Shown: positions 7,309 to 7,389 of the stretch, in pieces
How the letters are laid out: every line of letters begins with the position of its first letter
Position numbering within the stretch: position 1 is the stretch's first letter
Origin: a virus
Lineage: Duplodnaviria > Caudoviricetes
DNA length: 64,000 nucleotides
IMG/VR virus record: IMGVR_UViG_3300029305_005547
Coordinates: 64,001-128,000 of that record
Direction: 5' to 3' (one strand)
Position numbers and translations under genes: made by a program
Notes under the pieces: model-generated
Told to the model about the DNA's origin: nothing
What the model saw: the letters and a program-made list of their open reading frames with translations, nothing else
Databases searched by the model: none

Positions 7309-7389
7309 GACGGAATTTAGTTAAGTAAAATTTCTGTAAGTCTCGATATTTCTCGGGACTTACAGATTTCTTATTTAGCTAAATAGTAA
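7309..7389 (+). repeat. Cassette-head element, copy 1 of 9
   Basis: GACGGAATTTAGTTAAGTAAAATTTCTGTAAGTCTCGATATTTCTCGGGACTTACAGATTTCTTATTTAGCTAAATAGTAA. Confidence 0.97.

Follow-up and report, generated by a model that had tools for sequence, protein, structure and literature searches.

The question raised by this locus is what a 70-nt imperfect hairpin (7315-7384, + strand), repeated with few changes at the heads of reading frames that mostly lack a start codon, does for the phage that carries it. The window, by which is meant the whole 64,000-nt stretch of DNA analysed, comprises bases 64001-128000 of the single-contig virus record IMGVR_UViG_3300029305_005547. This record, of 278,849 bp, has a CheckV completeness of 100% and a G+C content of 32%; it is a jumbo phage and its setting is that of animal guts. 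The reading preferred here, to which a probability of roughly 60% is given, is that an 80-nt "vacant socket" with the hairpin as its core heads the silent tail-fibre tip cassettes, and that exchange at two short boxes within it (L and R) switches the tip that is expressed.

The hairpin described in the earlier note is real, with both coordinates and anatomy confirmed. Its outer stem of 14 bp contains two G-T pairs and is separated by a 4x4 internal loop from an inner stem, also of 14 bp, which is capped by a 6-nt loop. The folding energy of the RNA is -37.7 kcal/mol, compared with -17.9 +/- 3.2 kcal/mol for dinucleotide shuffles (z -6.3, with none of 200 shuffles as good), and that of the opposite strand is -24.7 kcal/mol. 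The window contains nine occurrences of a 34-nt core of the element (0.00 expected), every one on the + strand, and the whole genome contains 18, 13 on the + and five on the - strand, the orientation of each being that of the frame behind it. Alignment bears out the nine window copies and the statement that their differences fall mostly in the internal loop or change a T-A pair to T-G. Among the 18 aligned copies the internal loop reads AAAATT or AAGTTT on one side and TTTC or TTCT on the other, the stems change from T-A to T-G at three positions and show one C-to-A mismatch in two copies, and variation is otherwise limited to one base of the loop (TATTTC in copy 1). A T-rich run directly follows the inner stem, as had been noticed, and is confined to the lineage of this genome (lineage A). 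Rfam 15 returned generic hairpin matches only (18-24 bits against thresholds of 83-211 bits), and exact searches of IMG/VR with the inner stem and with a 16-mer of the 3' arm gave zero or chance matches only. A degenerate pattern of the 5' arm gave 100 matches in metagenome contigs, with no hairpin head among the 25 best-folding that were inspected.

The aligned copies share a block of 80 nt (7310-7389 in copy 1) with a G-rich tract before it, and the conserved unit is thus larger than the 70-nt hairpin. The block consists of an L box of 18 nt, a spacer H of 51 nt and an R box of 11 nt. The L box (7310-7327, + strand) is made up of five unpaired nucleotides and 13 nt of the 5' arm of the outer stem, and is unchanged in all 18 lineage A copies. 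Spacer H (7328-7378, + strand) holds the internal loop, the inner stem-loop (7333-7366) together with the initial 8 nt of the 3' arm, its last bases being an in-frame TAG. The R box (7379-7389, + strand) reads L-N-S-N and is identical to codons 375-378 of one complete fibre gene. The 14-nt palindrome TATTTAGCTAAATA in the right arm does span the fusion point, as had been proposed, its centre being the exact start of identity with that expressed gene. Stop codons are present in all three frames on each arm of the element, and another lies right before R. The G-rich, C-poor tract (7297-7309, + strand) precedes the L box of every copy, with its composition kept but not its sequence; G makes up 46% of the last 12 nt before L in lineage A and 55% in a sister lineage (lineage B), as against 16% genome-wide, and a nearly C-free G-rich tract of 10-12 nt is found before L in both lineages and also at the expression locus.

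What lies behind the heads is of one kind. The frame of the R box is open for 92-455 codons in 17 of 17 complete copies, with the other two frames closing after 0-55 codons. It begins after the TAG inside the 3' arm, with CTA AAT AGT AAN read as L-N-S-N/K, and only four of the complete copies have a start codon directly at the junction or adjoining it, none of them with a ribosome binding site. Those cassette products that can be classified are the C-terminal ends of tail fibres, with the Peptidase_S74 intramolecular chaperone, HxH repeats and PHROG families matched C-terminally. ARAGORN detected no tRNA genes in the whole 279-kb record rated complete; on this ground, and with long ORFs that remain intact under table 11, stop-codon recoding or suppressor tRNAs were rejected.

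Cassette 1 (7379-8752, + strand) encodes a tail-fibre C-terminal tip with an intramolecular chaperone domain (Pfam PF13884, PHROG tail-fibre C-termini). Immediately 3' of it on the same strand is a single ORF of 3142 aa (8846-18274), placing head and silent tip within an apparent structural operon. The other eight window copies are likewise on the + strand. Copy 2 (28081-28491) has its element at 28081-28160 and a tip frame, without a start codon, at 28150-28491. In copy 3 (32095-32464; element 32095-32175, frame 32168-32464) the R box carries one extra T, reading CTAAATTAGTAA (32164-32176); a fusion to the left of this T would meet a stop, so this cassette may be crippled. Copy 4 (35802-37033) has its element at 35802-35881 and tip at 35871-36428, followed by a gene (36440-37033) with its own ribosome binding site that is possibly a tip-specific helper. 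Copies 5 and 6 form a tandem array, with an HxH/S74 tip in copy 5 (54120-54737; element 54120-54199, tip 54189-54737) and a downstream gene in copy 6 (54770-56402; element 54770-54849, tip 54839-55486, gene 55500-56402). Copy 7 (60948-61849) comprises element 60948-61027, tip 61017-61352 and downstream gene 61364-61849, copy 8 (61886-63102) element 61886-61965, tip 61955-62476 and downstream gene 62488-63102, and copy 9 (63202-63873) element 63202-63281 and tip 63271-63873. With several tips the next gene has its own ribosome binding site and a conserved junction, and such genes, which matched no known family, may be tip-specific helpers.

The 17 complete heads are spread over 19-172 kb of the genome, 12 of them co-oriented with the expressed fibre gene. 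One further head, on the - strand at genome positions 41439-41518 (L031:1940-2019; copy listed at 41462), is truncated, with the L box and inner hairpin intact and with 3' arm, R box and tip gone, the terminator of a convergent gene being present instead.

The expressed counterpart of these cassettes lies outside the window. A solo L box is present at genome position 135681 and a solo R box at 137332, and between them, in place of spacer H, sits a module of 1633 nt (M) that contains a terminator-like hairpin, a small divergent gene that matched no known family, an upstream region which presumably holds the promoter, a ribosome binding site and fibre codons 1-374. The R box is then read in frame as residues 375-378 of a fibre gene of 626 aa, the sole complete one in the genome. 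No half-site or remnant of the inner stem was found at this locus. With L and R flanking M, the silent loci have the layout L-H-R-tip and the expressed locus the layout L-M-R-tip. The expressed tip and that of cassette 1 are 28%-identical paralogues with their first 11 residues in common. The identity between silent and expressed loci is asymmetric, taking in the entire 5' arm at L and just 6 nt of the 3' arm at R, and no dif-, lox- or attC-like core is evident in the element. A second direct copy of GTTAAGTAA was observed in the left end of M, 20-30 nt past L, in lineages A and B (L001:1201-1230 and L039:9848-9880); these copies resemble accessory binding repeats.

Comparison of strains places the breaks at the same two boxes, all exchanges being deduced from between-strain differences in assembled DNA contigs, among which neither a reaction intermediate nor a rearrangement inside one population was observed. 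Fibre homologs are conserved through LNS(N/K) and unrelated past that point. In one strain (L042), with N-terminal fibre residues 95% identical to those of the lineage A reference, the whole span of L, M and R is 94% identical, and M sits behind a 45-nt flank that in the reference genome precedes silent copy 3. The tip after M in this strain is 67% identical to the silent cassette of the reference at 171.8 kb, which is the best silent/expressed tip identity found in lineage A, and a further head then follows. A bovine-gut strain (L043, also in run X8) has the upstream flank and M as in the reference with a different tip, homology ending at the last base of R and resuming about 1 kb downstream; the expressed tip of the reference has no cover in run X8. 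In the same run a 1292-nt difference terminates exactly at the first base of another head. The breakpoints between strains are thus located inside the L and R boxes. In other strains, the search for the copy-1 tip joined to a fibre N-terminus gave distant C-terminal matches only. The proposal that a conserved fold-back heads start-less cassettes, with a fusion point at the level of DNA, is upheld by the R box lying in frame and by these strain breaks in L and R. The heads are the heads of silent cassettes, L and R are their exact junctions with M, and it is there that close strains differ.

A fibre N-terminus 66% identical to that of the reference led to a second complete phage (G001, 275,512 bp), the representative of lineage B, with 35 copies of a homologous element. 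Here too the cassette is in the frame of the R box, in 32 of 32 copies, this frame opening after TAA as Q-N-C-N with the expressed gene reading L-N-C-N. The L and R boxes of lineage B differ from those of lineage A, yet agree between its own silent and expressed loci, and such co-variation of the 18-nt and 11-nt boxes between lineages implies either continual exchange or selection to match. In strain L097, M is joined to a tip whose counterpart in G001 (99% DNA identity) is a silent cassette immediately preceding the expressed gene, and the next head runs into DNA that in G001 lies 61 kb away and inverted; these junctions indicate that the heads serve the switching of the expressed tip and also larger rearrangements. 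A third lineage likewise has an L box upstream of its fibre gene. Five IMG/VR fragments bear B-type heads, none of them including the fibre N-terminus.

A gap-free alignment of the elements of both lineages spans 84 columns, of which 41, unpaired positions among them, are invariant. When the structure of copy 1 is laid on this alignment, 85% of cells pair, as against 30-46% with partners slid, and in five of the 30 pairs both partners have changed, as in columns 12/73 (A-T replaced by T-A) and 33/52 (G-C replaced by T-A). The covariation with homologs from related phages that had been suggested as a check is therefore present, pairing being kept in the sister lineage. The lineage B element has a hypervariable and irregular centre without a consensus fold, and it possesses neither the T-run that follows the inner stem in lineage A nor the 14-nt palindrome of the fusion point.

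The strand bias held only in part. With RNA or DNA parameters alike, the + strand is the better folder in 16 of 16 complete distinct lineage A copies, as had been claimed, but the - strand is the better folder in 20 of 20 lineage B copies, and selection on a folded + strand is not supported in view of this reversal. A preferred strand that flips between the two lineages argues against a single folded strand as the substrate. The comparison of A and B suggests that pairing, length and outer boxes are selected, and not a particular folded strand, a terminator or an inner 14-6-14 site.

One rival explanation is that the element acts at the RNA level only, as a silencer or insulator that keeps spare tips untranslated, in which case it would be a terminator or RNase III-type site combined with three-frame stops and exchange would be homologous recombination between 80-bp repeats with the fold uninvolved. 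In lineage A the element is like an intrinsic (Rho-independent) terminator in having a 14-bp stem, a 6-nt loop and a T-rich tail; of the copies between 53.5 and 64 kb, all pass a terminator scan with their inner stem and tail apart from copy 5, whose stem has the C-to-A mismatch. The stops in three frames on both arms also fit this explanation, as do the + strand operons that enclose the elements in the window and the + strand being better folded by about 10 kcal/mol in the reference (lineage A) genome. However, a terminator would need neither a length fixed at 84 gapless columns nor invariant unpaired positions, the element also differs from one in its near-identical copies and conserved outer boxes, and lineage B has no T-run, an irregular centre and a better-folded antisense strand in 20 of 20 copies. 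Furthermore, the expressed and silent loci share 18 + 11 nt, which is short for general recombination, yet the boxes co-vary by lineage. A purely RNA-level role is accordingly considered unlikely, and termination or RNase III processing, which had been offered as an alternative, is not supported as the conserved role by the comparison with lineage B.

The 14-6-14 geometry of the inner palindrome resembles that of tyrosine-recombinase cores, and an Xer-like enzyme is encoded in the genome, from which it might be supposed, taking further the tyrosine-recombinase site suggested in the earlier note, that the palindrome is a lox- or dif-like core whose strands are exchanged in the 6-nt centre. This is very improbable. 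Every observed junction lies in L and R and none in the centre, the inner part is replaced at the expression locus without leaving a half-site, and the centre is so variable among lineage B copies that it would block strand exchange between them.

As a further alternative, the cassettes could be expressed singly, either by a ribosome hopping from a short upstream frame (start codon, T-E-F-S, stop) in the manner of T4 gene 60 or by removal of the hairpin from the mRNA. A start codon occurs in the frame of ACG GAA TTT AGT TAA in 13 of 17 copies, compared with 4/17 and 6/17 for the other frames, and AGT-TAA before the hairpin is matched by AGT-AAY after it (TGT-TAA before and TGC after in lineage B). 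Nevertheless, upstream starts in lineage B show no frame preference (12, 9 and 13 of 32), and the excess in lineage A is largely explained by a conserved TG immediately before the L box. There is also no room for a nascent-peptide signal in a leader of only 1-6 codons, the products would be anchorless C-terminal fibre fragments, and a full gene with R in frame exists. Such expression is therefore judged highly improbable, and translational bypass of the T4 gene 60 type or via a mini-ORF was rejected, since no in-frame upstream start is conserved and the upstream-start excess is not reproduced in lineage B. A selfish miniature inverted-repeat element playing no part in fibre biology is scarcely credible as an explanation. 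Many near-identical dispersed copies with inverted ends, one of them truncated, are what such an element would produce, but 17 of 17 and 32 of 32 copies are in a single frame with a fibre tip, and the boxes are common to the expressed gene and co-vary with it across lineages.

The socket layout together with the L and R junctions thus leads back to the preferred reading, the hairpin as the vacant-socket head of silent tip cassettes acting at the DNA level. Each socket consists, in order, of the G-rich tract, L, the 51-nt fold-back spacer H and R, the latter read in frame into a promoter-less tip. One socket per genome has M in place of H, and only that tip would be made as a full fibre. Switching would take place at L and R, where M would be exchanged for H or one tip for another, in some cases perhaps via inversion between oppositely oriented heads. 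The fold-back would serve as a recognition structure in DNA for the exchange, which would most likely be carried out by a single Xer-like recombinase, and the head would in addition keep unused cassettes closed by its stops in all frames and the stop directly before R. Alternatively, the exchanges could be rare evolutionary events that arise via general recombination or via template switching at short identities.

The candidate enzyme is encoded at 172-1197 on the + strand of the window, an Xer-like tyrosine recombinase with domains PF00589 and PF13495 and a score of 231 bits for NF040815 (cut-off 220). It is the only recombinase among the families searched and the sole PF00589 match in the genome, and G001 encodes an ortholog of 74% identity. 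The ortholog is absent from two more distant relatives (99-100% complete), one of which has only a 27%-identical integrase, and no hairpin heads were present at the one fibre locus examined in these. As the enzyme of exchange the recombinase is a candidate on circumstantial evidence; its gene lies about 70 kb from the expressed fibre gene, and it could instead serve integration or dimer resolution. A 12-15-12 inverted repeat is present about 350 nt upstream of the recombinase gene in both lineages (L044:600-638, L103:1116-1152); in the reference genome it lies inside the upstream ORF and is uninformative as a recombinase site.

PF00239, PF01797 and PF00078 had no match anywhere in the genome. 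A serine invertase or Y1 transposase, neither of which is encoded, was consequently excluded, and so was a retroelement mechanism (DGR), the genome being without a reverse transcriptase. In a related fibre lineage (L099, P0009), with a fibre N-terminus 66% identical and hairpin heads absent, a reverse transcriptase gene (PF00078, L099:9266-10414) was observed about 2 kb downstream of the fibre gene, which suggests that there a diversity-generating retroelement replaces the cassette archive.

A bolder form of the proposal, tentative and rather doubtful, is that M is itself a mobile expression unit, hopping or swapped among the 17 to 35 sockets by the Xer-like recombinase acting on the fold-back heads. 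We know of no case in which a promoter and N-terminus are the part that occupies alternative sites, and a full-text literature search did not find a promoter + N-terminus module in alternative heads described. Were M mobile, the phage would bring the front half of the gene to the tip and not the tip to the gene, a programmed host-range lottery for which no viral counterpart is known to have been described.

Several known systems resemble parts of this arrangement. The recombination of fold-back DNA has a precedent in IntI acting on attC, and the likeness to attC that had been pointed out is a fair description of the architecture, stem, internal loop, stem and variable centre. The element and attC are both imperfect fold-backs that have two paired boxes, a central spacer left unpaired and a centre that varies, and both separate promoter-less cassettes; in each the junction lies a few nucleotides from the 3' arm's base, and the expression site shares no more than a short core. 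Short tandem arrays also occur here (copies 5-6 and 7-9, and many in lineage B). The likeness does not extend to core sites, an IntI-type integrase or a contiguous array. The RYYYAAC/GTTRRRY core is not present, the ends being ATTTAGTTAAG / CTAAAT in lineage A and TTTTGTTAAG / CAAAA in lineage B, and, as regards the single folding strand with extrahelical bases that marks attC, the element shows a symmetric 4x4 internal loop without single-base bulges and a preferred strand that is + in A and - in B. Unlike attC, the element lies ahead of its ORF, with the reading frame continuing from one into the other. The cassettes are dispersed over >150 kb on both strands with no attI-intI-Pc platform, the recombinase scores 83 bits for TIGR02249 against a cut-off of 265, and the expression module appears to be an alternative filling of the site.

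An Xer-family pair acting on a DNA hairpin of stem, unpaired centre and stem is well established for CTX-phi attP(+), with XerC/XerD, and both an Xer-like enzyme and such hairpin architecture are present here. In contrast to CTX-phi, there is no dif-like sequence, the phage is double-stranded and does not have an ssDNA genome, and two junctions (L and R) are needed. The R64 shufflon (Rci/sfx), Mu G/Gin, P1 C/Cin and p15B Min likewise join a constant N-terminus, that of an adhesin or tail fibre, in frame at a short site to alternative start-less C-terminal segments, and the tyrosine recombinase of the R64 shufflon uses sites that are conserved on one side only. These systems are compact clusters of inverted sites beside the constant part, whereas here 17 to 35 genome-wide, mostly co-oriented cassettes bear 80-nt hairpin heads and no serine invertase is encoded; with 12 of 17 heads co-oriented and no PF00239, the pattern is not that of a shufflon or multiple-inversion system; one junction between strains is consistent with an inversion.

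In organization this system belongs to the class of silent-cassette archives that have one expression locus. As in Neisseria pilE/pilS, Borrelia vlsE and orphan CdiA-CT/Rhs tips, there is an archive of promoter-less and start-less C-termini with a short junction in common with one expressed gene, and the expressed tip differs between close strains; those archives use general recombination and are without a fold-back head. The kind is thus cassette-based C-terminal switching, as in shufflons, the Mu, P1 and p15B inversions, pilS-type archives and orphan toxin tips, none of which has the same site architecture and layout. The full-text literature search yielded no description of silent tail-fibre tips kept as a dispersed archive behind hairpin heads.

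Phages usually change host range by point mutation, diversity-generating retroelements or small inversion switches. The element looks like the socket of a host-range switch not previously described, in a phage that keeps 17 spare receptor-binding tips (35 in the sister lineage) dispersed among its housekeeping genes. If exchange is programmed, the heads would represent a new type of recombination site and a new logic, that of an expression module in alternative sockets, and they would offer a natural scaffold for phage retargeting, with 18-nt and 11-nt junctions for in-frame tip swaps. Should exchange occur on an evolutionary scale only, the element still accounts for the turnover of tips alongside a fibre N-terminus that stays about 95% identical between strains.
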